Assembly (NCBI GenBank): GCA_965287045.1
Contig: OZ336876.1
Span: forward strand, 62,496,001-62,560,000
Source: Carcharhinus amblyrhynchos
Lineage: Eukaryota
DNA: 64,000 nt
Direction of reading: 5' to 3'
The stretch's first letter is position 1. Each line of letters opens with the position of its first letter. Made by a program: the position numbers and the translations under genes. This document shows positions 3,260 through 54,240 of this stretch, piece after piece. The notes below the pieces were generated by a model. It ran no database searches. It was not told the origin of the DNA and worked only from the letters and a program-made list of their open reading frames with translations.

Positions 3260-3606
3260 GGAGGCATGGTAGCAGCCCAGTAGCACAGTGGTACTGCTTC
3301 ACAGCTCCAGCGACTTAGGTTCAATTCCTGGCTTGGGTCACTGTCTGTGGGGAGTTTGCACACTCTTTTTGTGTCTGCCTGGGTTTCCTCGGGGTGCTCC
3401 GGTTTCCCCCCACAGTCCAAAGGTGTGCAGGTTAGGTTGATTGGCCATGCTAAAAATTGCCCTTAGTGTCCTGAGATGCATAGGTTAGGGGGATTAGTGG
3501 GTAAATATGTAGGGATATGGGAGTAGGACCTGGGTGGGATTGTGGTCGATGCAGACTCAATGGGCCAAATGGTCTCTTTCTGTACTGTAGGATTTCTATG
3601 ATTTCT
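3260..3606 (+). mobile_element. HE1-type V-SINE
   Basis: tRNA-derived head (ggttcaattcc B box), V-domain ggagtttgcac…gggtttcctcggggtgctccggtttcc, CR1-like tail ending in tctatga repeats. Confidence 0.9.
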
Positions 3607-4988: not shown

Positions 4989-5114
4989 TCATCCTGGTCT
5001 CAATGGAGATGACTTACTTTGTCAGTGGGTTGCTGTTTGCTGGCTTGGTTAAAGAATGGGTTTGGGATTATGCCATTACAGTTACTCTCATTCATGTCGC
5101 AGTCACCTCAACAG
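4989..5114 (+). CDS. TMEM244: TMEM244 internal coding exon (126 nt, phase 1-1)
   Basis: Acceptor tctttcAG (4987-4988), donor GTaag (5115). Translates (V)ILVSMEMTYFVSGLLFAGLVKEWVWDYAITVTLIHVAVTST, matching the recalled TMEM244 segment VLLVSTEVTYFVCGL...VEEWVWDYAISVTILHVAITST. Confidence 0.95.
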
Positions 5115-6664
5115 GTAAGAAATGTATTCTGTATCATTTGAATGCTCAAAATATGATATTTTCTAAGAGATATCTAATATTGATGTAAACAAAACTTCAT
5201 GCCTCATACACTCAGGATAACACCATAAGTCTGAGCAGAAAAAGACATATTGTACCACCATTTGAAGTGCAAGAAGATTCCTTTTCAACAGAGAATACAT
5301 GTGAGAGTTGGGAAGTGTAATGTGTTGAAAACTGAATGGCAGAGGGAATCTTAAATGAGGAAAAAATCAATGTTCTAACATGCGCAGTTCTGACTACAAA
5401 TACGTTTTGGTGAATCTTTTTTTTTCTTCCCAAGAGCATCACAGGAAGTGACCTAGTGACCAGCATGATCTATGGGTTAAGGGCTGGGGAAACGTAATGT
5501 GGCAAATACCTTTTTGTGGAATTGTCTTTGCATCATCCCTAGCACTACACTGAAGTAATGGTGGTGGGGAAGTTTATTAGGGTGAGGTGCCTTGAATACA
5601 AAGAGTAGTCCTGATGTCCCAAGAACCATTGTTTCTGTTATGACCAAGCAGATGTTAATTGCCATGCAAACAAAGTCACAAAGAGAAATTTGTGCTACTT
5701 ACCATAATTCTATTTTTTCTTGAATTTTGACCGTAGGATGGTAAGTTTACCAAAGTTGGAATTTAAAAATTACAGTAACATGTGGGATTTAACATTATAT
5801 AAGAGCATTTATTTCCAAATGAAAGAAAACATAAACACATAAGATTACATTTACACAGTTAAAATTAGTGTCTCAGAAATTCCCTCTCAAAAACCTTCTT
5901 ATTTGGTTATACTCACAAATGAGCACCCTTTTAGGCACAATCTCTTATGCTTGATTATACACAAGGCAAACCCATGTCTGCAATAGGAAAGATATATTGT
6001 AGCACTTCTCATTCTCTGTTCCACTTTGCTATGGAAATTCAAGAAACTTCAAAATACCAGACTAATTCTTTGCAGCCTCATGATATTTCTGGCTCACCTC
6101 AGTGGTGGATTTCACTTTGCCTCTTCACAGTTCTCTTCTGTACACAGAATAGCATCCCAGGGTGACTCACATGGTCACTCTCAACACAGCTCTCACATCT
6201 CTCCTGAAATATTTTTTCCTTTCATTTTTATTTCATTGTCTTTAATCCTTTTTTGATACTTAACTTTCCCAGGATATAACATTTTTCACGTTCTGTCAAT
6301 TGCCCCAACTTTCAGGTCAAATAAAATTTAATAACCTTGCCTTACTTATTTATGACCATTTTCAGGTTGTAAACCTCTCTTACTCCCCTTTGAAATTTCA
6401 CAATGGAAAATAGACCTTTTTTATTTCCTAATGCAAATTTCCACCCTTGGCTCAATATTTTATAGAAAATTCAACTTGGCCATGCTTACTTCAAGTGCAC
6501 GCCTTGCATATCTATCCCCTTGTGATGCCCTAAACATTGCAGCTCATCTGTCTTCCATTTAATTAAATTCATTTTATACACATACACAGACACAATACAG
6601 CCTCAAACCTATTTCACAGAATAACACAATAAACCCCAAAAATATATTTTTTATATCTTTAGTC

Positions 6665-6860
6665 ATAGCCAGCATATCAAGGAAATGGAATGCATTAGAC
6701 TGCTCCATCTCAAAAGTGATTTTGAGTGTGGGTTGGAGCATCTTAAGGTGCGGAAGGAAATATTGTATCAGACAGCATGTTCCTTCCATTGATTGCAATA
6801 GGCAGGGTGCAGGCTCTACTCAACCAGCCAATACTTGAAAACCCAAAACAAAATATCTAA
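6665..6860 (-). mobile_element. degraded Penelope-like RT fragment
   Basis: ORF 6574-6798 contains LQPTLKITFEMEQSNAFHFLDML, matching the PLE RT motif LHPxLKFTxExE…LPFLD. Confidence 0.65.
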
Positions 6861-8302
6861 CTCTAGATATGATTCTGAGATTGGGCTGCACTTGCTGAAT
6901 AGTTTTGAGTACACTAATAGCTATAACAATCAATCTAAATTAGTTGAGCTCCTAACATGGTTCATCTGTGCATGCTAGAAGTGACATATTCACAGGCACA
7001 TACCAATTCTCTACAAACAAAATAAGTACTTTCAAACCTTGTGTATTTTTTTTAATTACCAGAGAGCTTGGGGAACCCCTGTTCTGTTCTCCATAGTGTT
7101 GTTTTAGCCAACCAGTGTCAGCTTACCATCTAACCATAACCACTTTTGCCTATGGCATCAATTATTACGATCATTTGAAATTTGGCATTCTTGCATTTGT
7201 CCTGATGAGTGCAATCACATCTCCCACAGGTTTTTGTTCCTCTGCACAGCATCAGTGGCTGGCAGCTTAGAGTCAAGGGTTATTCTCTGAGGACCTGGCT
7301 GATGAATCCTGGAAGAGTCCCTGTCAGTGACCCATACCACTAACCCAAAATATATCATTCCCACACTCAGAAACCTAGCCATCATGTTTGACATTGTTTT
7401 CTCACCCTCTAACCTGGTGACACCAATCTCCTGAAGGCCATTTAAAATTCAGGAAAGTGCATTACAGGCAAATGAAGATTTCAGATAAAGTGTTTGAATC
7501 AGAGAAATCAACAGATAAATTAGATCATTAAACATTGTTAAAAACACTCAAATCCTCTTGTGTGACTAAGTCTTTCTTATTCACTTCTGATTCCTCCTAT
7601 TATGTGATGCAACCCATGTGGCTTCAGCAGAGCTGGAGACAAGCTGTCCATTCCCCTGCTCTGAGAGTTGAGATGTCTCTTGCTGACAGCTTCTGGGATT
7701 GAAAACAGTGAGGACCCACTAAAGGGATCCTCACCTGCACTGGTGCGGGGTTAACTGTCATTAGGATAAGAACCAGCAGAGGCTGACGAGAGGTGATGGA
7801 ATAAGGAATGAGTGGTGGGAGAGAAGAATTCCCACTGCATCTTTCCTCTCACATCTTGCCTGCTGTCCGAGGGCTGCAGAGAACCTGGCTGCGCTTCAGT
7901 GAGTCACTGAGTCACCACAGTGAGGCTTTCCTCCTTCCTGTGTAATGTGACAGACTGAGTGTGCAGATCTTCAGTCATGGCCAACCTGCAGTCAATGATT
8001 TGCGTTGTCTGGTTCTTCATGCAGATGGTCACTCATGAAGGACGGTAAGAACAGACCAGTTGAAGTAAAATTTTGCCTTTAGAGTGGAATTTATCTGAGA
8101 TCGTCAAATATAATGTTAAACTTCAAAAACCTCAGAAATTTTTGGATTCATAAGTAGAGGCATAAAATATGAAAGCTTGGTAGTTATAGTAAACCTTTTT
8201 AAACACAGGTTATTGTATCCATTTCTGAGCAACATGTTTTATGGGGAAAGTCAATAGCTTGGAGAAAATGTAGAAGCATTTACCAGAATGGTAACAGAGA
8301 CA

Positions 8303-8429
8303 GGGGCCAGAATTTTATCATTCCACCCCACGAGGATTGGAGAGGAAGAGAGGTGGACCATGGAAAAGTCTGTTGACCTCAGGCGGCATTTTCCAGTTTT
8401 GGGATAAGCGAAGCCATAAAATCCCGGCC
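8303..8429. mobile_element. short Harbinger-type MITE
   Basis: Terminal inverted repeats ggccagaatttta … taaaatcccggcc. Confidence 0.7.
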
Positions 8430-8484
8430 AAGGGATTTCAGTTCATGGGAAGATGCTGGAGAATGTGAGATTGTTCTGCTTCAA

Positions 8485-10856
8485 CTGTGTAATGAGGCAG
8501 GTAGAATACTGTGTAACGAGGCAGGTAGAATTAGGGGTCTTCTTGTGAGGGATCCTCTTGGGATGAGTGATCATAGTATGGTTGAATTTCTGATGCAGAT
8601 AGAGGATGAGAAAGTAGGGTCCTGAGCCTGTGTCCTCTGTTTGAACAGACGGGAGTATGAAAGGATGAGAGCGGAATTGGCGAATGTAGATTGGGAGCGC
8701 AGATTGGTTGGTAGGACGGCTGAGGAACAGTGAAGGATTTTTAAGGAGATTTTTTTCGGTACTCAGCAGAAATATATTCCAATGGTAAAGAAGGACTATA
8801 GGAGAAGGGATAACCAGCCGTGGTTATAGAAGGAAATAAAGGAGAGTATTAAATTAAAAGCTGATGTGTTTAGAGCGGCTAAAAATAGTGGGCAATTAGA
8901 AGATTGGGAAAGATTTAAAAAACAACAAAGAATGACTAAGAAAGCGATAAAGAAAAGAAAGATAGAGTATGAAGCTAAACTAGCTCTAAATATAAAAAAT
9001 GATAGTAGAAGTTTTTACAAATATATAAAGAAGAAGAGACTGGCTAGAGTGAATGTTGGACCCTTGGAGGACGAGAGGGGGGATTTAGCGCTGGGTAACG
9101 AGGAAATGGCTGAGGCTTTAAATAAGGTTTTTGTGTCGGTCTTCACGGAGGAGGACACAAGTAGCTTGCCGGATATTAAAGATAGAAGGATGGTAGGAGA
9201 TGAGGTCCTTAATGCGATTACTGTCACTAGAGAGGTAGTACTTGATAGACTAACGGGACTGAAGGTAGACAAGTCCCCAGGACTGGATGGAATGCATCCC
9301 AGGTTTCTGAAAGAAACGGCAGAGGTGATAACGGATGTCTTAGTAATTATTTATCAAAATTCACTGGACTCCGGGGAAGTGCCAGAAGATTGGAAAATGG
9401 CTAATGTTACGCCGCTGTTTAAAAAGGGTAGCAGGCAAAAGGCAGGGAATTATAGGCCGGTTAGTTTAACGTCCGTAGTTGGAAAAATGCTAGAATCCGT
9501 CATCAAAGAAGAAATAGTGAGGCACCTAGAAAAGAACGGTTTGATCAAGCAGACGCAGCACGGATACATTAAGGGAAGTCGTGTTTAACGAGTTTATTGG
9601 ATTTCTATGAGGATGTGACTAGTGCGGTAGACAGAGGGGAACCTGTGGATGTGGTGTTTTTAGATTTCCAAAAGGCGTTTGACAAGGTGCCTCACAAAAG
9701 ATTGCTGCAAAAGGTTAGAGTGCACGGAGTTGGGGGTAAGGTGTTAGCGTGGATAGAGGATTGGTTATCTAATAGGAAGCAGAGAGTTGGAATCAATGGG
9801 TACTATTCTGATTGGCAGTTGGTGACTAGTGGAGTGCCGCAGGGATCGGTGCTGGGGCCTCAACTGTTTGCCATTTACATAGATGATCTGGAGGAGGGGT
9901 CTGAGTGTAAGGTAACGAAATTTGCTGTTGACATGAAGATGAGTGGAAAAGCAAATTGTGTGGAGGGTGTGGAAAGTCTGCAGAGAGATCTGGATAGGTT
10001 GAGTGAGTGGACAAGGACCTGGGAGTTGGAATACAATGTTAGCAAGTGTGAGGTTATCCACTTTGGTAGAAATAATAGGAGGGATTATTATTTAAAAGAC
10101 AAAAAGCTGCAGCATGCTACGGTGCAGAGGGACCCAGGGGTCCTTGTGCATGAGTCGCAAAAACCCAGTCTGCAGGTGCAGCAGGTGATCAAGAAGGTGA
10201 ATGGAATGCTGGCCTTTATAGCAAGGGGGATAGAATATAAAAGCAGGAAGGCCTTGCTGCAACTGTATAGGGTACTGGTGAGGCCACAACTGGAGTACTG
10301 TGTGCAGTTTTGGTCGCTGCATTTGAGGAAGGATATATTGGCCTTGGAGGGAGTGCAGAGAAGGCTGCATTAGGCTAATACCGGAGATGAGGGGGTTGGA
10401 CTATGAGGAGAGTTTGAAGAGACTGAGTCTGTACTCGTTGGAGTTTAGAAGGATGAGGGGGGATCTTCTAAGAGACATATCAGATAATGAAGGGGATAGA
10501 TAGGGTAGAGGTAGAGAGATTCTTCCCGCATAGAAAGGATTGCAGAACTAGAGGGCACAGCCTCAAAATAAGTGGGGGGCATGCAGTTTAGATCGGAGTT
10601 GAGGAGGAACTTCTTCACTCAGAGGGTGGTGAGTCTCTGGAATTCTCTGCCCATTGAAGTGGTGGAGGCTACCTCGCTGAATATATTTAAGTCACAGGTA
10701 GATAGGTTTCTGATAGACAAGGGAATTAAGGGTTATGGGGAGAAAGCGGGAAAGTGGAACTGATCCACTTCAGATCAGCCATGATCTTATTGAATGGCGG
10801 GGCAGGCTCAAAGGGCTAGATGGCCTACTCCTGCTCCTATTTCTTATGTTCTTATG
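8485..10856 (+). mobile_element. young 5'-truncated CR1 LINE (ORF2 RT, frameshifted)
   Basis: ORFs 8866-9588 and 9597-10373 carry KSPGLDGMHPR, GNYRPVSLTS, FLDFQKAFDKVPH and GVPQGSVLGP; (tcttatgt)n tail; probable TSD TTCAA at 8480-8484 and 10857-10861. Confidence 0.95.
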
Positions 10857-11407
10857 TTCAAGTGGGAAGATTGAGGGAAGGCTTAATTAAGGTGTACAAA
10901 AGTATAACTGAGAAAGTGTTTCCATTGGCAGGAGAGTCAGTAAACAAGGATATAGATTCAAGATAATTGGCAAAAGAATTAGAGAGGAGGTGAGAATTAT
11001 TTTAGGCAGCAATTTGTTCTGAGCTAGAATGCATTGCCTGAAAGTGTGGTGGAAGCAGATTCAATAGCAAATTTCAAATGGAATTAAATAAATACTTGAA
11101 AAGGAGACAAATTGCAGGGGTGTGAGGAAAGATCAGGGGAGTGAGGCTAATTGGATAGCTCTTTCAATGAGCTGGCACAGACACAGTGGGCCAAATGATC
11201 TTAATAATTGAACAATTCTAATGAAGCTTACACTTGCTATAATGAAGCTCATTTCATGCCTGAAATTACATATTGCAAAATGCTGCCAGAGTAAAATGAT
11301 TTCATTTCCAATGCTGTGAAGGGGCATTGTACACTCAGGCTTGCATCTTGACTTCTTTATCTACTATATCTAATATTCTTCAATTCAAAGCGTTGATTCC
11401 ATGATAT

Positions 11408-12700
11408 GGGGAGCAATTCTCCAGGCTCGCTGCACTGCTCGAGTAGTGCAGCGGGCTGGGAGACATCAGCAGGGACCATTTCACGGGCTTCCGCTGGGTG
11501 TCACAACATCCGCGCATCTCCAGAGGTAAGTTTATCAGCCTAATCAGCTCTGCATTGGAAATCAGCACAGAGCTGATTACAATATGGAAATCAACATTTC
11601 CATCTGATTAGTGGGTTAGGGAATGAAGTCTCCAGGCCAGCGAGCATCTCCACGCACCCCCCACCCCCCTGTCGGGAGTTGTGCACCCCAGCAAAATTTG
11701 CTCCTGCTCCCCACTAATGGGGAACAGATGATCGACCCCGCTTGAGGGAACAAAGGCCATTGAGGCCCCCTGATGAAGTTGGGGGCAAGGGGGTGATAAC
11801 CCTTTGACAGTGCCAGCATGGCAGTGCCAGCCTGTTATTGCTCAAGGGGCAAACTGATACTGCCCAAGAGGCACCTTGGCACTGCCCACAGGCCATCGGG
11901 CAGTGCCAAGGGGATGGGACCAGAGGGGGTGGAGCCTATTTGAGGGCAGGGCCTATTGGGGTTCAATCAGTGGGGAAGGGGTACGTGCTGTCACTCTGCA
12001 TTGGGGTCAATGGCAGAGGGAGAGAAGAGGGCAATTGGGGCTGACCATCCGGATGGGGGGTGAGGTCGGGATTGCCGGGGAAGAGCTCACGGATAGTCAT
12101 TGGAGGTGTGGGGCGGGTCAGGACTGTTGGGGGAGGGAGACCTTGGGGCTAGCCGATGGGGAGGTGGTGGAGGCAGGGGTGGTGGGGCCTTCAAGGGTGG
12201 AGACATTGGAAGTGGCCCACGGGTGGGGGTGATGGGGGAGGGTTGGGACTGTCAGGGGGGGACAGGCAGCGGGGAGACTTTGGGGCTGGTCAGGGGGCCA
12301 GGGTATTGGGGCGGCCCGGAGAGATCTGGGATGTCAACAATTTGGGGATGGGTGATTGGAAGGCCAGCAATGAGGGGTTGCAGGGTTGACCAGCGATTGG
12401 GCTGGCCAGCAATCTGGACACCAGCAAGGTGGGGGTGGTTGGGAGGGGTCACTGTGCATGCGCTGATCTCTGCACTGACAGATCGGAGCATGCACAGTGA
12501 CCTGCTCAGTGTTATGCTGCTGGCCTCTCAGGCAGGAATAGGCCCTGTCCCCAGATTTCCAGACTGAATCCCGTAAGGACACTCCATGATGCACAGAGTA
12601 TCAGAGATTCATTCTGGGAATCGTGCTGAAAATATAGAGGGATTTACTCCCATTTTCCTGCATTTTGGGGACTTCAAATTTCTTTGGGGAAATCCCGGCC
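11408..12700. mobile_element. non-autonomous Harbinger-type element, G-rich interior
   Basis: Ends ggggagcaattctcc … gggaaatcccggcc resemble other Harbinger/MITE termini here; subterminal palindrome at ~11421-11460. Confidence 0.55.
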
Positions 12701-13010
12701 ATAGTGGTCTCAGCAGAACCTAAGGTGTACTTCATGAAAATGCTGCTCTCCAATGCTGGATCAAATGATCAGCCAGTTGTTTGTTGGTAAACCTGCTGAG
12801 TTTTTCCAGCACGTTCTTTTTTTTATCTCCAACTCTCCTGATTACTACTCGAAACCACTTCTGAATTGCAGTCTTTCTCAGTTTCCAGGGATTGTTTCCT
12901 ATATTGGCCAATTATCCCCTCCCTAATCTGCTTCCACCCTGGCTGTGATCAGCTAAGTAAAAAGTCTGACAACACCAGGTTTTAGTCCAACCGATTTATT
13001 TGATAATAGA

Positions 13011-13047
13011 CTCACAAGCTTTCGGGTTAGTCCCTTCATCAGGTGAA
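13011..13047 (-). ncRNA. minimal type I hammerhead ribozyme (inverted arm copy)
   Basis: Reverse complement reads UUCAC-CUGAUGA-A-GGG acuaa CCC-GAA-AGCU-U-GUGAG. Confidence 0.8.
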
Positions 13048-13404
13048 TGGAGAGTTCTGGCCTCAGACAGAGCATATAAAGCACAGACAGTTTACAGATT
13101 ACTGATTAGAATGCGAATCCTTACACCTAACCTACTGTTCAAGACCTGAAGTGGCTGACAATGTGAGTGGAAGGAGCACTGATCACAGGTTACAGAGATG
13201 TGTATTGTCTCTAGACAATACAGTAAGTGAGGTTTTGCAAACCCAGGCAAGTCACGGGGGTTACAGATAGTGCGACATGAACCCAAGATCCCTGTTGAGA
13301 CCGTCCTCATGTGTGCGGAACTTGGCTATCAGTCTCTGCATTCTAATCAGTAATCTCTAAACTGACTGTGCTTTATATGCTCTGTCTGAGGCCAGAACTC
13401 TCCA

Positions 13405-13441
13405 TTCACCTGACGAAGGGACTAACCCGAAAGCTTGTGAG
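13405..13441 (+). ncRNA. minimal type I hammerhead ribozyme (PLE pseudo-LTR)
   Basis: UUCAC-CUGACGA-A-GGG acuaa CCC-GAA-AGCU-U-GUGAG: catalytic core, stem II, palindromic stem III and stem I all present. Confidence 0.8.
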
Positions 13442-14220
13442 TCTATTATCAAATAAATCGGTTGGACTAAAACCTGGTGTTGTCAGACTTTTTACTGTGT
13501 TTACACCAGTCCAACGCCGGCATACCCACATTGTGATCAGCTAACTCAGTGAAAACCTTGGATTTACCAACACCTCCAGCTCAGAATGGCTCAGTTATTC
13601 ATTGTGTAAATTTACTGGATCCAGTGAGACAATGCACGGAACAGGACTTTAATAAAACAATTCTGACAGCTCCTTTTCTGTGACTGACACGCTCAGCACC
13701 TCTTCTATATGTTCATCACCATCTCTGGATCTTGGTTGTGACATTGGATCTCTTCATTGACTTATCAAAGCGAAGGCATTTTACCTGATTAGCTGAACTG
13801 TACATTAATTATCTAGGTGCATGTATATGCTGAAAAAGAAAATGTATTTGTTACATGTGTTATGGATTAATACTTGTACTTGCATAGGTGCAATATTAGC
13901 ATGGGTTCAACCAGTGAAATAGAATGATGAAATGATGATAAGCTAATCACTGAGACAGTTAAAGGACTGTAAATTAAATCTTTCACTATATAGGCAATAA
14001 TCCTGAACATTTGGATGCATAACATGCATTCATTATACCTAACTGTATGCTGCAATGGGGTTTGACTCAATTTCTATATATTGATTGTGAGATTTAACAA
14101 CTGGCTGATCATTTGATCCAGCAGTGGAGAGCAGCATTTTCATGGAGTGCATCTTAGATTCTGCTGAGAACACCATGGCCGTGGTTTTCCCAAAGAAATC
14201 CAAAGTCCCCAGAAAAAAGC

Positions 14221-14388
14221 AGTAAGATTTATTTAGAACCACAGCTTTCGGAGCGCTGAATGATTCACCTGATGAAGGAGCAGCACTCCGAAAGCTCGTG
14301 ATTCCAAATAAACCTGTTGGACTTTAACCTGGTGTTGTGAGATTTCTTACTGTGCCCACCCCAGTCTAACACTGGCATTTCCATATCA
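14221..14388 (+). mobile_element. solo PLE pseudo-LTR with a short inverted 5' piece
   Basis: Shares aaataaacctgttggactttaacctggtgttgtgag…ccagtc with the other PLE ends; 14227-14257 is an inverted partial copy. Confidence 0.85.
14262..14304 (+). ncRNA. minimal type I hammerhead ribozyme
   Basis: UCAC-CUGAUGA-A-GGAG cagca CUCC-GAA-AGCU-C-GUGA. Confidence 0.8.
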
Positions 14389-14519
14389 GAAAGAAACAGA
14401 ATAAACAAGCTTTTACACCTTTGTGCTTGGTGTTTTGTTGCTCTCCCATAAAATTCACAGCAAGATGGTCCATATAATTCTGTGTATCCATACACATATA
14501 TCTGTAACTATTAGTACTG

Positions 14520-15040
14520 ACTGCACCAACCCCCTCCCACCCCCCGCCCATTCCCGCACCAGTCATTCACACTGGCTAGCCAATATTCCCTGGCTAGCCA
14601 ATTAATCCCCTTTACCACCTGACCAACCCCCTGACACTTCTGACTACTCTATGAATCCCCAACACACCTGACTGGTCTCCACCTTCCATGCCCCCGAGCA
14701 CCTGATTGCCCCATCAATCCAATTTGACCAGCCATCCAACCTGATCTGACTAATCCCCGACCCAACCCCACACCCTTTCAATCCAGCCTGGCCCAACTTC
14801 CCACAACCTACCTATCCACTCACCTACCTACCACCTTAACCACCCCCCACAACTACCCACCTGGCACTTCACTCATCTCACCTACCTAGCCACATGCCAC
14901 CCTATTCTCCTCACCCATCCTACCCACCTGCCATCCGATCCACCTCGCACATCTACCCACCTCACCCACCTACCATCCCACCCACCTGTCATCCTCACAA
15001 CTCTGTCACCCTACCCATCTACCACCCTATCACTTTACTC
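14520..15040. repeat. C-rich low-complexity tract (ccacc/ctacc units)
   Basis: Degenerate repeats of acccacct/ctacc; probably the interior of a non-autonomous DNA transposon. Confidence 0.6.
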
Positions 15041-15868
15041 ATTTAACTTACACATTTACCTTCCCTCTGTAGTTTTTGGGACATTTAAACTCTTTATTTA
15101 GAATATGACAGCTAGTGGTGTAAAAAGAGGATGTAGTTTCTACACAAATTCTCTGCAGATTTCCCACACTGAGTCGCATGTGAAAGGTCTTCGATTGGAA
15201 GATCACTCAGAAAAATTGGAGGAAGCTATGTGTGTATTCTTTCATCTGATCAGAGTCAGAAATAGGGGCCAAAATCTTGCACTCACCCCCTGGTGAATTC
15301 TGAGATGGGTAGGGGCGGAAGTGCAGGAGTGGGGTGGGGGGTGTTGTGGTGGTGGGGGCGGGGGGTGGAGAATATGAAGAGTGTGAAATTTCATGGAGGT
15401 GTTTCCCTCTGGGATCCCACTTGCACCAACTTGGTAGCCATTTTACAGTGGGGTGGGCAGGACCTCTGGCAGAAGACCATCTTTTCCCCAATTAAGGTCC
15501 TTAAGCAACCAGCCTCAATATTTAGGCTGATGAGTGGATGATGACTCAGGGGGTGATTTTTAGCAAGAAGGGAAAGGGAAGCCTCTATCAGATGTCCCCT
15601 TTCGCTTCAAGGTAGGTGCCCTCCTCTTGAGCCCAATGACCTCTGGACCTTTTTCACTCCCACCCCGCCCCCGCACCAGCTTACCCTCAAGACCCTGATC
15701 ACCCAGGAAACCTACCCTCCCCACCCAGAGGCGCCTGCCATTTACTTGTCCTTCAGTTCCCATCACTTATTTCCAGGCAGCTCCCTCTTCCGGCCAGTGC
15801 AGCGCTCTACCTGGAGGGAACGCAGAGCTACTGGCCAACCTGGCTGGCTGAGAACACACCAAAATGGG

Positions 15869-17049
15869 ACATAGAACATAGAACATTGTGCGGCACAATA
15901 GCACAGTGGTTAGCATTACTGCTTCACAGCTCCAGGGACCTGGGTTAGATTCCTGGCTCGGGTCACTGTCTGTGTGGAGTTTGCTCGTTCTCCTCGTGTC
16001 TGCGTGGGTTTCCTCCAGGTACTCCTGTTTCCTCCCACAGTCCAAAGATGTGTGGGTTAGGTTGATTGGCCATGCTAAAATTGCCCCTTACTGACCTGAG
16101 ATGCTTCGGTTAGAGGGATTAGCAGGTAAAATGTGTAGGGATATGGGGGTAGGGCCTCTCTGGGATTGTGGATGGTGCAGACTTGATGGGCCGAAGGGCC
16201 TCTTTCTGTACTGTAGGGTTCTATGATGATTCTATGATTACAGCGCAGTACAGGCCCTTCGGCCTTCGATGTTGCGCTGACCTGTGAAACCAATCTCACG
16301 CCCGTCTAACCTACACTATACCAATATCATCAATATGTTTATCCAATGACCATTTAAATGCCCTTAATGTTGACGAGTCCACTACAGTTGCAGGCAGGGC
16401 ATTGCATGCTCTTATTACTCTCTGAGTAAAGAACCTACATCTGATATCTGTCCTATATCTATCACCACTCAATTTAAAGCTATGTCCCCTTGTGCTAGCC
16501 ATCTCCATCCGAGGAAAAAGGCTCTCACTGTCCACCTTATCGAATCTTCTGATCATCTTATATGCCTCTATTAATTCACCTCTTAACCTTCTTCTCTCTA
16601 ATGAAAACAGCCTCAAGTTTCTAAGCCTTTCCTCATAAGACCTTCCCACCATATCAGGCAACATCCTGGTAAACCTCCTCTGCATCCTTTCCAATGCTTC
16701 CACATTCTTCCTATAGTGTGGTGACCAGAACTGTACACAATCCTCCAAGTGTGGCCACACTAGAGTTTTGAACAGCTGAGCTTATAGTTCATCTGCACCA
16801 AAACTCCATTTAGCCACCTTTGCCTCACATTCCTTAATATGCTTGGTTAACCAATAGCTACTCTCAGTTCAATAATTGATCAATTGCCATTTGTATAAGA
16901 GCATTTCAAACATCAACCGTACTGTGTGCAGAAGAACCTCTTGGCTCTGAAACTCAATCCCTCTACCAATAAAAGCTAACACACTGTATGCCTTCTTAAC
17001 AACCCTATCAACCTGGGTGCCAACTTTCAGGGATCTATGCACATGGAAC
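15869..17049 (-). mobile_element. CR1 LINE 3' fragment containing a SINE and a foreign insert
   Basis: ORF 16311-16760 (PHLEDCVQFWSPHYRK…LFSLERRRLRG…TRGHSFKL…FFTQRV); (atagaac)n tail at 15870-15886. Confidence 0.9.
15888..16239 (+). mobile_element. full-length HE1-type V-SINE inserted into the CR1 tail
   Basis: A box (tagcacagtggttagc), B-box-like ggttagattcc, V-domain and tctatga tail; CR1 tail sequence resumes at ~16240. Confidence 0.92.
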
Positions 17050-17401
17050 TTCCTCCTGTGTGGAGTGGAGGTCCCACCTTATGCTAATCAATGCTTATTG
17101 GAATGTGAAATTGAACCACGGCTGCTGAACTGGGCAGGGATATATCCCCCCACTGACATTTCAGCATCCTTGCCTACATGAAGATTTATGCCAGCATATC
17201 TGATTGTGGGCCCCTAATCAAAGTAGCCTTCACTGTTAGTATCAATTAGAAATAGATGTTCAAAGCTATGACTGAAAGTATATTAAGCTTTTATTGAAAT
17301 TTATTCAGAGTTAATATTGATGAACTATTTTGCACGTGGGTATCTTAGAAGTGCCTCAGTAAAGACATGAAAAATCGATTTATCTCAATTATATTTTTCA
17401 G

Positions 17402-17446
17402 TTATGGCTGAGTTTCCATTGGTATGGCATTGGTGGTTGGCTCTAG
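17402..17446 (+). CDS. TMEM244: TMEM244 coding exon (45 nt, phase 1-1)
   Basis: Acceptor atttttcAG (17400-17401), donor GTaag (17447). Encodes (V)MAEFPLVWHWWLAL(G), matching TMEM244 VMLEFPLTSHWWAALG; phase fits the previous exon. Confidence 0.95.
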   Translation, partial: LWLSFHWYGIGGWL

Positions 17447-17555: not shown

Positions 17556-17838
17556 TGCCAGGGACCCAGATTCAATTCCAGCCTTGGGTGATTGTTTGTG
17601 TGGAGTTTACACATTCTCCCTGTGTCTGTGTGGGTTTTTTCTAGGTGCTCTGGTTTCCCCCCACAGTCCAAAGATGTGCAGGTTAGGTTGATTAGCCATG
17701 CTAAATTGCCGCTAATATCAGGGGGATTGGCAGGGTAAACACATGGAATTATGGGGATAGGGCCTGGGGTGGGATTGTTGTTGGTGCAGGCTCGATGGAC
17801 TAAATAGCCTCCTTCTGCACTGTGGGGATCCTATGAAT
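17556..17838 (+). mobile_element. HE1-type SINE, slightly 5'-truncated
   Basis: gccagggacccag…V-domain…ctccttctgcactgtggggatcctatga. Confidence 0.88.
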
Positions 17839-17956
17839 CCAAAGGTACAGCTCTGCACATAGCACACAGGCATTAAGATGTTTTCTCACTGGGCTGAACT
17901 CCTGGAACTTTTTGAGTTGGCCAATAAATATCTTATTATCTTGTGGTTCTCAGCCC

Positions 17957-18052
17957 AGTAAGAATCCTCATAACACCAGGTTAAAGTCCAACAGGTTTAT
18001 TTGGTAGCAAATGCCACTAGCATTCGGAGCGCTGCTCGTTCGTCAGGTGAAT
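17957..18052 (-). mobile_element. PLE pseudo-LTR fragment with mutated hammerhead
   Basis: Reverse complement tcacCTGACGAacgagcagcgctccGAATgctagtgg…aaataaacctgttggactttaacctggtgtt; GAAA mutated to GAAT. Confidence 0.8.
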
Positions 18053-18454
18053 CAGCCATTCTCAGCCCTGTCAGGGCATAATAATTGTTAAAATTTAAAG
18101 GGATATCCCCACTTGTAGGTAAGTGAACATATAGAGAGGGAAAAGTTTTTTTATCAAGGCTGTCAGTATTTCAAAAGTATATTTTATTTTTTCCAAGAGG
18201 CAAAAAACTGTATGTTTTTAATTATTGAGCCTTGTAATGGAAAAGCCATCACCTTAGATTACAAAGCAGAGGTTCTGTTGCATCTGTTGGATGCGAAGAA
18301 AGTTGCTTCACTTGACAATCCTGGCATCCCTTTTCAAGCATTTAACTAGCCTGGCAGAGTGTGACAGTTAGATCCAATACCGTATTAACTTCCTGCATCA
18401 CTTGAGAACAAATACAAAAGAATCTTAAGAAAGATGCCAAAATATGATTTTTAA

Positions 18455-22141: not shown

Positions 22142-23540
22142 CACAGAATCACAGATTATTACAGTGCAGCAGAAGCTCTTCAGCCCATCGAGTCTGCACC
22201 GAAGTATGAAATGCCCTGACCTGCCCATCTAATCCCTCTTGCCAGCATTTGGTCCATAGCCTTGAATGTTATGGCGTGTCAAGTGCTCAACCACCCACAC
22301 CTGATTCTCCGCAGTGTCAGTGATACACGCTGGCACAAAAACATACCTGGAACAACATGGTGTGCAGATGCAAGGATGGAGGCGGCAGGCAACCTTGGAT
22401 CGTGGAACACCACAATAGCGGGTGAGGAGAACACCTGCAGGTGGACTATCCAGATTGTAAAGGATGTGAGGCATCCTGCCTCCACCACCCTCCCAGGCAG
22501 TGCATTCTAGACCATCGCTGCCTTCTGAGTAAAATAGTTTCTCCTCAAATCCCCCAAAACCTCCCACTCCTCAGTTTTAACTTGTGTCTCCTTGTAACTG
22601 ACCCTTCAATTAACAGCAGCTTCCTATCCATCCTGTCCATGCCCTTCATAATCTTGAACATTTCAATCAGGTCGCCCCTCAGTCTTCTCTGCTCCAGTGA
22701 AAACAACCCAAGCCTATCCAACTGTTCTTCATAAATTAAATGTTCCAACCCAGGCAGCATCCTGGTAAATCTCCACTGCACCACCTCCAGTGCTTTCACA
22801 TCCTTCCTCAAATGTGGCAACCAGGACTGTACACAGTTTTCCTGCTGTGGCCTCACCAAACTTGTATACAACCCATCATGACCCCTCTGCTTTTGTTATC
22901 AATACCCCGATTGATAAATGCAAGAGTGCCATATGCTTTTTCACCACCTTATTAACCTGCCTTTCTGCCTTCAGCAATCAATGAACAAACACTCCAAGGT
23001 GCCTCTTTCTTCAGAACTTCCCAGTGTCAGACCTTTCACAGTATATTTCCTTGTCAAATTACTCCTTCCAAAGCGCATCACCTCACATTTTTCAGGGTTA
23101 AATTCCACCTGCCATTTATTCGCCCATTTGATCATCTCATCTGTATTTTCCTTTAACCCAAAATACTCAGCCTCACTGTTAGTCACCCAGTCAATCTTTG
23201 TATCATCGGTAAACTTACTATTCATACCCCCAAAATAGTCATCTTTGTCATTTATATAAATGACGAACAATAGGGGGCCCAGCACAGACCCCAGTGGTTC
23301 GCCACTGGGCATTGGCGTCCACTCACTAAAACAATCATCTGTCATCGCCCTCCAACTCCTACTGTCAAGCCAATTATGAATTCACCTTATCAGATCACCC
23401 TGTATCCCACGTGCATTCGCCTTCTCAATAAGCCTCTCATGTTCGACTTTGCTAAAGGCTTTGCTGAAATCCATGTAAACTACATCAACCACACTATCCT
23501 CATCCACACACTTCATTACGTGCTCAAAAAATTCAATCAC
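22142..23540 (-). mobile_element. degraded CR1 LINE (RT to 3' tail)
   Basis: ORFs 22971-23345 (GSVLGPLLFVIYIND…SKFTDDTK…WQVEFNPEKC) and 22545-22871 (LVRPQQENCVQSW…LFSLEQRRLRGDL). Confidence 0.92.
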
Positions 23541-31350: not shown

Positions 31351-33912
31351 CTTTTCACAAAAATGACCACCATTTTGTAACTGTTAACAAGAGATCAGAA
31401 CACAGGTCACTTCCTGCTAAATTATTCTTTGTGACCTTTAGAAAGAATGTGTTTGTGCTTTTTAGATACTGTTTCATTTAATATTGTTGAGTCAGCGAAA
31501 GATATGATTGAGGTCATTGTTGAATTCTCAGAGGATGAATATGACCTTTAACTCGGAGTACTTTCAGTTTAGAATGCACATCTGAGCAAAAATAAAATTA
31601 TACATCATCCTAGTTTGTATCAATGGAATCACCCATTGCTGTGACATTTTACTGGTGAGTACAATTTAATGTATGCAATGCCAGATGTAATACAATTATT
31701 AAAATCATGTGATAGGAAAACATGATGGGCACCAAATTCAGTGCTTCAGTGCACATTTTCTTGGCGCTACAAGTGCTGTTTTGACTCAAAAATGAAATCT
31801 GCAGTGCATGTGCACACACTTGGTGGGGTTGTTGGTACCCATGCAATGAGGATCTGCTGGAGGTATAAAGCTATGCAGATCCTTATGCCAGTCAGCGTGT
31901 ACCGCTGAATTGGCACCATTCTGGAGATCCACACTCAAATTATTGCCCTTCCCTAACCACACACAGCCAACCACATATTCAGCAGCAGAGAAGCCATTTA
32001 GAGGGAACATCAACAAATCGCAGTTTAGTTGTAGAAGTGTTCACTGGTTCTCAAAGTTGTTTAGCATTGCTGACATCTACAGGGAGTGATGTGGCACATG
32101 CTGAAGGACTTTGCTCTGACTTCAAAGATTCTGTACACACTGTGTGTTCTGAGACATGGGTGCAATAGTTTGCATTCGCCTTGGTCTACACTGCGGCATG
32201 GCAGGAAGAATGAGCGGTTGTGACACAGAGCAGGAAAAACTGCTGGAGATGTAAAGGGGGAGAGGAGAGGGGTTGAATGGCTCTCAGTAGGAGGAGAGGA
32301 TGCAAATGCGTTGGGTATTCAGGGAACAATGATCTTACCTGACTTCTGCAGTTCACCATCCACTATTGCTTGAGAGAGATCACTGAGCCTCTGTATTCCA
32401 AGAGAGATGAATATGTCTTGGCAGCGAGTGCAAATGGCTTCACAAAGATTGCAGTCTTCCCCCTGATAGAGGGTGCCATTAACTGCATGCGCATTGCTTT
32501 GTGGGCAGCACATGTCAACCTTGAGATGTACCACAACTGAAAGGAATCCAATTCCTAATATCCAGCAGGTGTGCGACACACATTAAATATCATGCAGTTC
32601 CTGGCAGTATTCGTGATGCTTCCACTCTGCAGTACTCTGCTGTACCATCTGCATTTGTGATTCCACAGAAAATCAGAGAGTAGCTGCTGGGTAATAAGGT
32701 TTATCCTTTTAAGTTAAGGTTCATGACATGACGTCAGTGTGCAGCTTACACACAGCATGCACAGAATGAAACCCAAACTGCCATACATAATGTGATGGAG
32801 TAGCTTACTGGGGCGCTTAAACAGCACTCCTGCTGCTTGACGCACACTGAAGCAGTCCTGTATATTTTGTAAAGCTCATGTCAAGATTTCTGATGCTCTC
32901 CTGAAAGCTGCATGACTTCATCATCATGAGGGCACAGTCCTTGCCACCAACTATATGGCAAGTAGCTGAACTGCAGGAAGAGGAAGAGGGGTAGACACCA
33001 GCCCCTTTCTGGACAGTAATATGGACAGCAAAATGCGCCTGATGTTGGATATTTGAAATGGAAACCAAAATTGATGACAATGCTAAACAAATCAGGAAGC
33101 ATCTGTGGAGAGAGGAACAGAGTTAATGTTTCAGGTCTATGGGCCTTACTTTACCATTTTGATTCGAACTGCTGGGCGGAGTTGAAACTGGGAATGTTTC
33201 AGATCTGTTCTCAGGTGCCCCCGTATACACTCTGCCTGAAAAATATCAGCAATTCCGAATCGCGCTGCACAAGCCTGTGGGCAGGGCTTAATGCGCTTTA
33301 AACCCTGCAGTTCTGATCGATGCCTCCAACTGCATGAGCGCAGAAAATAAAATGATAGAATGTAGCTCCCCCGCCACATCCCTCCAGATAATGCTTCACC
33401 CCAACAACGTTACTGACCCCCTTATCCCCTCCCCTGCCACCCAGGCCAATCGTGGGCCTCTTCCCCCCACCCCACCCTCTGATCTCAGGGAGCATGTCAG
33501 CAGACCCCTTTCCTCCCACCAATCTCAGGCAGAGTGACAGCGGATCCCCCCCTTCCTCCCCTGATATCAAGCAGAGAGATCCACCCACACCCCTCCATCT
33601 TACAGATGTCAGGCAGAGTGATCCCCCTCTCCCCCACCCTGGACCCTCCTGCAGAAGGCCCTCATCTCCTACGGATTCTGATGGCTGTGTGACCCTTCCC
33701 TCTCTTTCCCCTGTCCCCAATCACTGAGGCACTGATCCACCATCTTACCACCCCCCCTTCTCCCCCAACCCCCAATCAGCACTCCTGCAAGTGCTCACTT
33801 GCCTTCCCCTCAATGCTAACAATCAAACTGCATGGAACTTGCTGGAATGCTCTGCCAAACTGCCTGCAGCTGATCTGCCCTAATGAGGGGCAGCTCCATT
33901 AAAAACTCAAGA

Positions 33913-36603
33913 ATGGACAGACGGGCAGTGCAGGACAATATGCGTATGAGCAGCCCTTGTTTTGCTGAGGGCGATCTTGGGAGGATACTAGGTCCAGCAG
34001 AGACAAGGCGGGGGGGAGCCCAGGAGCATGCAGACTCGGGGGGCTGATGGAAATGCGGCCTGGGAGGCAGTCGCTGTCTTGGTCAGTGCCAGGGCACTGG
34101 CCCCCGAACCGGGAAGCAGTGCTGCAAAAAGGTCAATGACTTCATACAGGGAGCAAGGGTGAGTTTCTAACCCCATCTTGCATCTTTCCCCAAATCTCCC
34201 CCAGACACTGCCATGTCCAGCACTCTGCATGCACCCCAGCCCCAGATCCCCAAGCACCTTCTTCCTGTCCCCCCAGTGATCCTTATTGTGCTTGTCCTCT
34301 AAGGACCACCACCTGATACTCTGCAGTAGTCATGCCATCATTTATTTTCATGGCTCCTTCTGTCTCCACAGGAGAAGACCAACCATAACAACAGAGAGGG
34401 CAAGGACAGGGGTGGTCAGCCAGACCTTCGGGTCTTCATCGCCTTTGAGGAGCAGGCACTGGAGCTCTCAAGGGAAGGGGAGGTGTGGGCTGTAAGCAAC
34501 AGCATGGTCGGGCTGCTGTCAAGATGTGAGAATCTGTCATTCCTCTTTGAAGCGACTTCCCAGGGACATGAGTTTTCGATGTGAGGGGCAAGGTTTAAAG
34601 GAAATGTACGAGGCATGTTTATTTGTACAGAGAGAGTGGTGGGTTCCTGGAACTTGCTGTCGGGGGAGGTTGTGGAGGTAGATACGATAGTGACCTTTAA
34701 GAGGCATCTTTACAGCTACGTGAATGGGATGGGGGTAGAGCAAGGGTCCTAGAACAGATCCCTGGGGCACTCCACTGGTGACTGACCTCCATGCCGAAAA
34801 AGACCCATCCACAACCACTCTCTGCCTTCTGCAGGCAAGCCAGTTCTGGATCCACAAGGCCAAAGGCCCTTGGATCCCATGCCCTCTCACCTTCTCAAGA
34901 AGTCTTGCATGGGGGACCTTATCAAACTCCTTGCTGAAGTCCATGTACACCATGTCCACTGCACTTCCTTCGTCAATGTGTTCAGTCACATTTTCGAAGA
35001 ACTCAACTAGACTCGTAAGGCACGACCAGCCCTTGACAAAACCATGCTGACTATTCCTAATCATGTCAAACTTCTCCAAATGCTCGTAAATCTTGTCCCT
35101 CAGGAGCCTCTCCATCAGCTTACCAACCACTGAGGTCAGACTCACCGGTCGGTAATTTCCCGGGCTATCTCTGTTCCCTTTCTTGAAAATAGGAACTACA
35201 TCTGCAATCCTCCAATCTTCCGGAACCTCTCCCGTCTCCATTGACGACGCAAAGATCATCGCCAGGGGCTCTGCAATCACTTCCCTCGCCTCCCACAGTA
35301 TCCTGGGGTACATCCCATCTTCTCCCTCCCTTGCACTTAACCTTGTGTCCTATGTTGCAGGGGCAGAACCAGTTATCCCGGGGCCTTCTGGATCCCAGGC
35401 CCCTTCTGCAGCTCCTGCCCACCCTGTTCAGGACAGCTCGGATGAATCCTCGGAGGATATGGCTGAAGGGATCTCCGAGGGTGGCACAGTTTTAGCGCCA
35501 GCTTCCACTTCACAACTCACATCCCAGAAACTGACACATCAGTGGGTCCAGTTAGTGGTGAGGCTTCTGGGTCACTCTCTGGTGAGCACGCCACATCTGA
35601 TAATGTATATCGGGTGAAGGAGGGAACGTCCGAGACCTCTGACACGCAGGGACCCATCGGAGGCGAGGACTCAGCTGTCCGCAGGCTACATGCTGGGCCT
35701 CTGTCATCACTTCTCCCTCAGCTGCTAGAGATGCAGCAACAGAGCCAAGGAATGCAGGAGGGGCTGACGGCCACACTGGACCAATTGCGAGGCTGTTCGG
35801 AGGAGTCCCAAAACTTTCAGGTTGTCCAGCTATTGCCTGTCTTGTGAGCTTCCCAGGCCAGTACTGCAAGGGTGGCATCTGCAGTGGAAAGCTTGGGGCA
35901 GGAGATCCTCACCATGAGTGACAGGCTCCAAGCAATGGCCAAGTTACAGCAGGCCACAACTGAAGGACTTGAGATACTGCGGCGAATGGCTGAGAGGCTC
36001 AAGAGCTTGTAGGAGACCCAGCGGGGCAATGCTGATGCACAGCAGACTAAGGCAGCAACCCTTTAGAATGTGGCCCAATCATAGAGGGTCATGGCTGAAG
36101 GGCTACAGAGCGAGGCCCAGTCTCAGAGGGCACTTGCTACAGCCATTAACCAGGTGGCCCTCCACTCAGCTGGCCATCGCAGAAGGCTCGACCACCATGG
36201 GTAGGACGCAGGTGTTCCTCCAGGACTGGCAGTGCCAGGTAATCTGGAGCTCACTGCAGAGGCACCACCCTCCCCTGGAAGACCTAGGGGCCCACAGGAA
36301 CCCCAAGGGAGGAGGAAGGGGCCTTTCAGCCAGGAGACTGTGACTGTGGCTACACTTTCTGACTTCTCCCTTCCTCACACCAGGGCATCTCAGGATCAGC
36401 TGGATGAAGAGGGTGTCATGGAAACATCCCAGACACCTGGAAGCAAACCAGGGCCCTCAAGGTTCAGGGCCGCCAAAGGATGCCCGCCACATGCATCACA
36501 GGCCACAGGGTCAGGTAGGCAGCTGGCCCCCTCCAATTCTGAAATACATTCTGGGGAGTTATTGAGACATAGTGGTAGACCATGTAAGGTTAGGAAGTTG
36601 TAG
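33913..36603 (+). pseudogene. Harbinger Myb/SANT-like gene, 3 exons (33913-34158, 34372-34525, 35361-36603), frameshifted
   Basis: AAWEAVAVLVSA…RTGKQCCKKVNDFIQGAR|gtgagt; ag|EKTNHNNRE…PDLRVFIAFEEQALEL; acidic/low-complexity third exon. Confidence 0.8.
34550..35320. mobile_element. two CR1 fragments joined tail-to-tail in the Harbinger gene intron
   Basis: 34550-34740 is a + strand CR1 ORF2 end; 34737-35320 is a - strand RT segment (GNYRPVSLTS, YMDFSKEFDKVPH, GVPQGSVLGPLL). Confidence 0.9.
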
Positions 36604-47555: not shown

Positions 47556-48045
47556 TTAAATGGTCGCAACAAATAATTAATAACCCACTAAACTCCTAGC
47601 ACATTTTGTCTAATTATAATCTGAAGAATTTCAATTAGAAGATATGTTTTAAAGTGCTCCAGGAAATGTAACTTAATTTATGCCAATTAATGCTAGTTTA
47701 AAATGCCCATGTGTTTCCTGATTATTAGGTAATTAGAAATTTGTTCCTGCTTATACTATGCTATGGTATAGCTTTGTGAAAGTCTGATCATTTGACAGGG
47801 GATTGTGGGTTTCTCTGTCTAATCAAGGAAAAAGATTTCTGTGTGATTTTCCAGAAAAAAGCCTACAAAGAATTGGCTCATAATTTTTGCACACAGAGAT
47901 AATCTCCCCTCCATTTAGATTGTTAAATAAAATGGTTAGTTTGAATCTAGAAACGAGGATGCCTGTCTGCTAGAGCCAAATTCTGATTATGTTTCAATAT
48001 TTGTTTTAGTGCACATGCTCTAAGTCTTTTATTATTTCTACCTAG

Positions 48046-48140
48046 GTGGTGCATTGTTAATAATGATCTGCAGTGGACACCTTCTCGTGCATTTTGCATT
48101 CCAAGATAACCTCATTTATCCACTTCTGGATGACTTTTAA
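48046..48140 (+). CDS. TMEM244: TMEM244 last coding exon, to TAA
   Basis: Acceptor tttctacctAG (48044-48045). Phase-1 frame gives (G)GALLIMICSGHLLVHFAFQDNLIYPLLDDF*, resembling the recalled C-terminus of non-human TMEM244 (…DNFIYPILDDF). Confidence 0.9.
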
Positions 48141-53790: not shown

Positions 53791-53977
53791 ATTAAATTTA
53801 ATGTTCTGGGCAGTATGCCATGTGTACCATGTCAAAAACCTTGCTGAAGACTGCAGTAGACATACTAACCTCATTACACTTCTTGTTATTTCCTCAAAAC
53901 AAAATAATCAAGCGAGTCTGACATGACCTTCTCTTCAAAAACGTTTATTGACCATCCTGGAATCATTCATGTCATCT

Positions 53978-54240
53978 GAATAGCACAGTGGTAATACTGC
54001 TGCCTCATAGCACCAGGGTCAATTCCCTGCTGGGGTCACTGTCTGTGTGGAGTCCGCACATGCTTCCTATGTCTGGGTGGGTTTCCTCAAGGAGCTCTGG
54101 TTTTCTCCCACAGACCGAAGACATGCTAGTTAAGTTCATTGGCCATGCTAAATTCTCCCTTAGTGTACCCGGATTGAGATGATTAGGAGATTTTCATAGT
54201 AACTTCATTGCACTGTTAATGTAAGGCTACTAGTGACACT
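53978..54240 (+). mobile_element. V-SINE with HE1-like head and a different 3' tail
   Basis: tagcacagtggtaatactgctgcctc…V-domain…attggccatgctaaattctcc, then tail ttttcatagtaacttcattgcactgttaatgtaagg…gtgacact. Confidence 0.8.

Follow-up and report, generated by a model that had tools for sequence, protein, structure and literature searches.

Two hammerhead motifs in an intron of TMEM244

The window (the whole 64,000-nucleotide stretch analysed here) contains part of the gene TMEM244, one intron of which carries two motifs, here called H1 and H2.

4989–5114, + strand: TMEM244 exon 5′ of the host intron, 95% identical to Mustelus TMEM244 (tblastn), with a GT donor at 5115
5115–17401, + strand: host intron, 12.3 kb, predicted from the sequence, with GT at 5115 and AG at 17400–17401
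13404–13442, + strand: H1, minimal type I hammerhead with AGCU stem III, predicted to cut after 13436
14262–14304, + strand: H2, minimal type I hammerhead with AGCU stem III, predicted to cut after 14297
17402–17446, + strand: TMEM244 exon 3′ of the host intron, 16 of 16 residues matching Chiloscyllium TMEM244 107–122

The two exons code on the + strand for neighbouring parts of shark TMEM244, and the interval between them runs from GT to AG, which places H1 and H2 on the transcribed strand of the intron, as the earlier note on this DNA had proposed. Pfam named no family for the 41-residue TMEM244 exon. Scyliorhinus TMEM244 (P0002) scored barely over the Pfam SYS1 cut-off (22.5 versus 22.3 bits), a match that hints at kinship between shark TMEM244 and the Golgi membrane protein Sys1. 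We also observed two candidate last exons of TMEM244 (31435–31548 and 48030–48137, both + strand), one of which fits the C-terminus of the Mustelus model and the other the C-terminus of four other cartilaginous fish models.

In H1, stem I is formed by AUUCAC (13404–13409) and GUGAGU (13437–13442), and the core CUGACGA (13410–13416) is followed by an extra base (A13417), a 3-bp stem II with a 5-nt loop (GGG/CCC, 13418–13428), and the 3′ core GAAA (13429–13432), which overlaps a loopless palindromic AGCU (13432–13435) and leads to U13436 at position 17, in the cleavage triplet CUU. H2 consists of stem I strands at 14262–14268 and 14298–14304, the core CUGAUGA (14269–14275), an extra base (A14276), a 4-bp stem II (GGAG/CUCC, 14277–14289), GAAA (14290–14293), AGCU (14293–14296), and the cut site C14297 in the triplet CUC. 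Both motifs have the core CUGANGA…GAAA…UH with stems I and II, a palindromic 15.1–16.1 without a loop III, and an extra base between positions 9 and 10.1 next to a G10.1–C11.1 pair (G13418–C13428 in H1 and G14277–C14289 in H2). The two cores lie 859 nt from each other.

A stem-aware descriptor matched four positions on the two strands of the window (13410+, 14269+, 13042−, and 51914−, the last accepted only with the register of stem II shifted) and matched nothing on either strand of 100 dinucleotide-shuffled 64-kb sequences. At gathering scores, no Rfam family reached threshold anywhere in the window; at E values up to 10, the segment 12900–14450 gave ten weak matches, none to a hammerhead family and none near a gathering score. 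The minimal motif is simply not modelled in Rfam. Two complete minimal type I hammerheads about 860 nt apart on the sense strand, sharing UCAC/GUGA stem I strands and a palindromic AGCU, had been described in the earlier note, and both parts of that description stand.

Both motifs lie in Penelope-like insertions

A single repeat family occurs 3′ of both motifs and has five copies in the window (13410+, 13042−, 14269+, about 18040−, and 51914−). These copies belong to two insertions around H1 and H2, a fragment in the next intron, and a decayed Penelope-like element (PLE).

12944–12956, + strand: left target-site duplication of insertion 1, 13 bp, perfect
12956–13114, − strand: tail-less pseudo-LTR of insertion 1, which forms antisense arm 1 of the pre-mRNA and has its own intact hammerhead (core 13042–13020)
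13115–13337, − strand: 3′ remnant of the PLE body of insertion 1, with the last GIY-YIG endonuclease codons, the stop, and the 3′ UTR
13338–13531, + strand: inverted pseudo-LTR copy of insertion 1, with a 35-nt tail (13497–13531)
13532–13544, + strand: right target-site duplication of insertion 1
14220–14258, − strand: short inverted arm of insertion 2, or antisense arm 2, 5′-truncated inside stem II and ending at the tail-less end
14263–14388, + strand: 5′-truncated pseudo-LTR with tail, insertion 2, second subfamily, 88% alike to 51920–51791 and 75% to insertion 1
17953–18054, − strand: pseudo-LTR copy of the same family in the next intron, with GAAA mutated to GAAT
51790–53830, − strand: decayed Penelope-like element with RT, Cys linker, GIY-YIG remnant, and a tailed pseudo-LTR with a degenerate hammerhead at 51914

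In the decayed element, the RT and endonuclease frames are frameshifted, are 73–76% alike to shark retroelement proteins, and matched Pfam RVT_1 at an E value of 1e-4, below the curated cut-off; a search for a target duplication of this 51.8-kb element found none. By tblastn, the window from 53.8 to 52.1 kb and the stretch 13347–13264 matched proteins P0011 and P0018, the latter stretch being 86% alike to the last 28 residues of the Heptranchias protein P0011 (E 4e-10). Both relatives have an RT followed by a C-terminal GIY-YIG endonuclease, the second domain read from the motif VYLIRC..YIG/YVG and Pfam naming only RVT_1, and the RT–endonuclease linker contains a zinc-finger-like CxxxxCxxC (CHSNLCKTC in P0011 and CNSILCKTC in P0018). 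At 13264 and at 52132, the end of the endonuclease ORF is followed by the same repeat, which puts the motifs within a PLE pseudo-LTR, and the body remnant at 13115–13337 is 77% alike to 52024–52167 of the decayed element.

An inverted 5′-truncated copy beside the element and a 30–40-bp tail at one end only, as found here, are a described PLE layout (PMC8557442; this and the other PMC papers below are drawn on in excerpt). The family is an EN+ Penelope-like one, apparently of Neptune type, its clade placed by the linker motif only; a Cys-rich linker marks both the Neptune and Nematis clades (PMC8557442) and therefore cannot separate the two.

Arm 1 ends at the tail-less end of the family and is identical to 13338–13496 at 156 of 159 positions (98%), and the 13-mer of the target duplication occurs in the window only at 12944 and 13532. 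Insertion 1 is a single event with the known inverted-arm PLE layout and a 13-bp target duplication. Antisense arm 1 is part of the insertion mechanism and not a separate regulatory piece. Because its arms differ at only 3 of 159 positions, insertion 1 is young. Both arms point outward, and thus a transcript of either direction reaches an antisense arm before it reaches a hammerhead.

Insertion 2 has its own inverted arm immediately 5′ of H2, which was absent from the earlier note. Arm 2 is a minus-strand copy of 14281–14354 that has three substitutions and has lost H17 within its first 31 positions, after which it has a 32-nt deletion; Rfam hairpin models matched 14228–14311 below the gathering score, at the same stem as the arm 2–H2 hairpin. 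Insertion 2 is probably older than insertion 1, as its arms are more diverged. As a target duplication for insertion 2, we considered 14210–14219 and 14387–14396 and rejected the pair, which has mismatches and whose first two bases equal the family tail. The earlier note had attributed both hammerheads to Penelope-like pseudo-LTRs, on the evidence now of the endonuclease ORF end and a decayed element ending in the same pseudo-LTR; it had also posited independent insertions, which the different subfamilies, 75% likeness, and different ages of the two support, and an antisense arm for the H1 copy, which is arm 1.

A further inverted repeat, likewise missing from the earlier note, spans much of this region.

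12663–12781: left arm of the outer inverted repeat, 119 nt, 88%, predicted to pair with 14096–14214 in the fold of 12640–14400
14096–14214: right arm of the outer inverted repeat, partner of 12663–12781

With its arms 1.3 kb apart, the outer repeat encloses H1 and insertion 1 and leaves H2 outside. It is possibly an old non-autonomous DNA transposon that hosted insertion 1. In runs from related sharks the repeat is low-copy, with few contigs matching its right arm at 80% identity, and we set aside the idea of a high-copy MITE.

Predicted folding masks both hammerheads

All folding energies are nearest-neighbour predictions at 37 °C that leave out Mg2+, tertiary contacts, and proteins. As bare cores, H1 and H2 can swap strands through their common UCAC/GUGA and AGCU segments, and the resulting double hammerhead was predicted at −18.5 kcal/mol, inside the range of the corresponding homodimers (−16.7 and −19.5 kcal/mol). 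Bare-core dimer ensembles gained only about 1–4 kcal/mol over monomers.

In the predicted fold of 12940–13560, H1 paired with arm 1 with a probability of at least 0.98 at every position from 13404 to 13442 except the N7 mismatch. In folds of transcripts of increasing length, arm 1 had already captured 13 of 13, 71 of 73, and 105 of 108 of the bases just transcribed. Arm 1 is transcribed before H1, and H1 is thus predicted to be zipped at once, long before H2 exists. Arm 2 (14220–14258) was predicted to form a hairpin with 14281–14320, and eight of nine tested positions in H2 (the 3′ side of stem II, GAAA, AGCU, and the 3′ side of stem I) paired with it at probabilities of 0.988–1.0, the exception being the bulged C17. 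Opening H2 cost 25.5–26.7 kcal/mol, compared to 5.9–6.9 kcal/mol with arm 2 blocked.

The earlier note had suggested that H1 and H2 form a heterodimer that cuts the nascent TMEM244 pre-mRNA, with arm 1 acting as a folding-dependent switch. In the segment 13330–14390, which excludes arm 1, the active heterodimer was predicted to be penalised by 28.5 kcal/mol (MFE) or 29.7 kcal/mol (ensemble), because arm 2 independently masks H2. The penalty rose to 124.7 kcal/mol in 12940–14400 and to 239.6 kcal/mol in 12640–14400 with the outer repeat (MFE), and 8.6–9.5 kcal/mol remained even with both arms out of play. By these models, a penalty of about 9 kcal/mol could be within reach of Mg2+, tertiary, and protein terms and figures of 125–240 kcal/mol would lie beyond it. 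A switch requires two states of similar energy; with a gap of 125–240 kcal/mol, and with arm 1 made first and pairing at once, arm 1 would act as a lock. Thus, the strand swap proposed in the earlier note is compatible with the bare cores, pre-mRNA cutting by the heterodimer finds no support given the masking of H1 and H2, and the switch likewise finds none.

Some observations weigh on the other side. Proteins, helicases, or A-to-I editing could open the diverged and mismatched arm 2. Both cores, their stems, and their cut triplets are intact, the bare heterodimer scores like the homodimers, and the H2 core has stayed intact although arm 2 has diverged at 4 of 31 positions and carries a deletion.

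The family is abundant in related sharks and the pair is probably not conserved

We aligned contigs of related-shark runs to 13115–14510 at 80%; run X2 represents organism B, and runs X5 and X6 represent one sample of organism C. The numbers of matching contigs were 5,631 (X1), 86,500 (X2), 122,723 (X5), and 170,943 (X6). Summed depth in X2, X5, and X6, which is not copy number, was about 10^5–10^6 on the PLE parts compared to 4–20 on the unique spacer, some 10^4–10^6-fold higher. The hammerhead-bearing pseudo-LTR family is high-copy in these runs. Family ends piled up at 14351–14354 (tail-less) and at 14388 and 13531 (tailed). Among the 15 joints listed of 417, 13 were opposite-strand joints at the hammerhead, represented by 50, 43, and 80 contigs in X2, X5, and X6, respectively, and within these 15 inverted arms look common in the family.

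Orthologous contigs of organism C aligned over 13532–14290 with 27 and 22 differences in about 753 positions, and carried arm 2 and the 5′ half of H2. The alignment broke off at position 13532, where the right duplication begins, leaving 395 and 422 letters unmatched. This end point suggests that organism C has an empty site for insertion 1 and likely lacks H1; the junction with the left flank was beyond the compared stretch. A contig of organism B (X2, record 13) spans 13508–14211 and includes the tail junction of insertion 1; it leaves the window at 14211, just 5′ of arm 2, with 148 further letters, and 14239 is uncovered. Arm 2 may be missing, deleted, or rearranged in organism B, which would free H2. 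This contig counts against extending the masking of H2 to organism B, and it also shows no conserved pair. A clean skip is inconsistent with the depth beyond 14453, which led us to reject an empty insertion 2 site in organism B. Across these sharks, conservation of the H1–H2 pair is unlikely. Run X1, whose RNA origin is a guess, gave zero cover of the unique stretch 13585–14242; contigs cannot show RNA ends, strand, or level, and this result thus has no bearing on expression or cleavage.

At the density of four motifs per 64 kb, a same-strand neighbour within 1 kb is expected for 6% of motifs, or for 1.6% if only the motif outside the cluster is counted. These rough values, from one window, correspond to about 120–1,900 close same-strand pairs per Gb. 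The proximity of H1 and H2 is therefore not special, such neighbours being expected by hundreds per Gb. PLEs are also said, in a review, to insert beside earlier copies.

Comparison with known systems

H1 and H2 resemble the minimal hammerheads of PLEs (Cervera and De la Pena 2014, PMC4209133) in lacking a loop III, in their palindromic 15.2–16.2, in the extra base between 9 and 10.1, in G10.1–C11.1, and in a short stem I, as well as in their pseudo-LTR position and in the occurrence of thousands of dispersed truncated copies and of opposite-strand pairs a few hundred bases apart, which that paper reported at 100–700 bp. They differ in having a stem II of 3–4 bp compared to 7–8 bp in the schistosome motifs and in belonging to a shark family, sharks not being named in the excerpts of that paper. 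In that paper, a minimal motif by itself did not cleave, and its activity as a dimer or trimer was low. A shared resemblance to Neptune-type EN+ PLEs (PMC8557442; PMC11167929) lies in the RT, Cys-rich linker, and C-terminal GIY-YIG-type domain of the relatives, in the inverted arm and the tail at one end only, and in two family 3′ ends about 35 nt apart; unlike those elements, insertions 1 and 2 are short remnants without coding capacity. The anole PLE hammerhead required the element's protein for cutting, insertion in vitro did not depend on cleavage, and, in the excerpted results, the cut site coincided with neither the start nor the end of any RNA-seq read (PMC11167929).

The ultraconserved intronic hammerheads of amniotes (RECK and others; PMC6155905) are also type I, on the sense strand of introns, and derived from retroelements. 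Those motifs show conservation between species and are depicted with tertiary contacts, whereas H1 and H2 are minimal, embedded in repeats, and predicted to be masked by arms 1 and 2 in the pre-mRNA, and H1 is likely lineage-specific, going by one sample of organism C whose join lies outside the compared stretch. Non-LTR retrozymes (bioRxiv 10.64898/2026.07.22.740005) share PLE-related type I hammerheads that need a neighbour, and one of nine Xenopus dimers tested in that study cleaved. Retrozymes are head-to-tail tandem monomers, unlike the two dissimilar insertions here, which lie about 700 nt of unique DNA apart (spacer 13545–14219) and whose copies are 75% alike and of different subfamilies.

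In the literature collection searched, no paper joined TMEM244 with a ribozyme and none dealt with orientation bias of Penelope hammerheads in introns, and the sole match for Penelope hammerheads in sharks uses "shark" for a shape. For variants of this kind, Lunse et al. are said, going by the title of their 2017 paper, to have found cleavage as dimers, and rates could exceed those reported elsewhere.

The hammerheads are most likely passengers

The reading that we prefer, at a probability of roughly 0.86, is that H1 and H2 are passenger motifs in two PLE insertions, predicted to be zipped by their upstream inverted copies, and likely never dimerise or cut pre-mRNA. Insertion 2 (14220–14388) would be the older, and the proximity of insertion 1 would be a coincidence, that insertion having occurred once the lineage had separated from organism C. 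The pre-mRNA would form a 159-bp helix over H1, a hairpin of about 30 bp would cover the 3′ half of H2, and the 119-bp outer helix would keep H1 apart from H2. Like other double-stranded RNA in introns, this RNA would probably be removed by splicing and broken down, perhaps with A-to-I editing or dicing as well. Hammerhead-cut introns were reported to be spliced nonetheless, whereas a fast HDV ribozyme in an intron blocked splicing (PMC2995048), so even a slow cut would probably not silence TMEM244.

It is improbable, if somewhat less so than the alternatives that follow, that the inverted arms serve as a safety catch. Unmasked sense copies would then cut nascent RNA as cross-family dimers, shark introns would keep sense copies mainly when these are gagged by an upstream arm, and arm loss or editing, which arm 2 may have undergone in organism B, would arm the ribozyme. 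Both sense copies in TMEM244 have arms, and the opposite-strand copy at 18 kb has none nearby.

A second alternative concerns a promoter in the pseudo-LTR of insertion 1, and a TATA-like box lies 32 nt 5′ of the first stem I base in H1, in arm 1, and in the 51.9-kb copy, across two subfamilies about 70% alike.

13372–13404 (+), 13080–13048 (−), and about 51952–51920 (−): TATA-like box to stem I start

If RNA started at about 13404, with a mirror RNA from about 13048 on the other strand, H1 without arm 1 could dimerise in trans with other PLE RNAs and would cut a small RNA and not the pre-mRNA; insertion 1 may be a divergent promoter pair if the pseudo-LTR starts RNA at the ribozyme 5′ end. The pseudo-LTR promoter of Drosophila Penelope can drive downstream sequence, yet that promoter is TATA-less and internal (PMC2377424). 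H2 would stay masked at a predicted penalty of 27.0 kcal/mol, and the small gain of bare-core dimers over monomers applies to dimers in trans. We regard this proposal as quite unlikely, and the pseudo-LTR promoter as a lead only.

It is very unlikely that the locus acts, with the hammerheads incidental, as a source of long intronic double-stranded RNA that serves as an editing substrate, gives rise to small RNAs directed at the PLE family, or alters how the neighbouring exons are spliced. The nested helices predicted here (159 bp at 98% and 119 bp at 88%) would provide such RNA, and Drosophila Penelope inverted repeats yielded small interfering RNAs (PMC3681739). Against this, the inverted-arm layout is common in the family (43–80 contigs per DNA run with opposite-strand hammerhead joints, among the 15 of 417 joints listed), and thus nothing singles out the TMEM244 locus. 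This alternative is compatible with the passenger reading and differs from it only by claiming an effect.

Least probable of all is cutting of the TMEM244 pre-mRNA in cis by the strand-swapped H1–H2 heterodimer with arm 1 as its switch, for which the intact swappable cores, the bare-core energy, and the view that PLE hammerheads act as dimers (PMC4209133) speak, and against which stand the predicted penalties with and without the arms, the order of transcription, the separate masking of H2, the likely absence of H1 in organism C, and the low activity published for the class.

Under the passenger reading, the motifs are real, of a known kind, and most likely inert. As such they matter little, being two of very many PLE hammerhead remnants with a layout described since the first Penelope papers. 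For any hammerhead motif of this kind, it is useful to look for an inverted copy lying 5′ of it; an inverted insertion whose arms point outward provides one whichever strand is transcribed. If the cis-heterodimer or safety-catch proposal were true, remains of different retroelement families would prove able to join as working ribozymes that modulate host genes, and thousands of test cases for in vivo cutting by minimal hammerheads would be available in shark genomes, a question left open in the excerpts of PMC4209133 and PMC11167929.

Other features in the window

Short palindromes at 11418–11463 and 12447–12502, with 23-nt arms 0 and 10 nt apart, respectively, edge a G-rich, repeat-like stretch. 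Long frames that read like remnants of LINE reverse transcriptases occur at 8830–10370 (+), 16314–16781 (−), 34540–35349 (−), and 22974–23381 (−). A dispersed repeat of about 300 nt, 70–83% alike between copies and probably a SINE, was found at 3272–3602, 15890–16227, 17558–17836, and 53979–54165.
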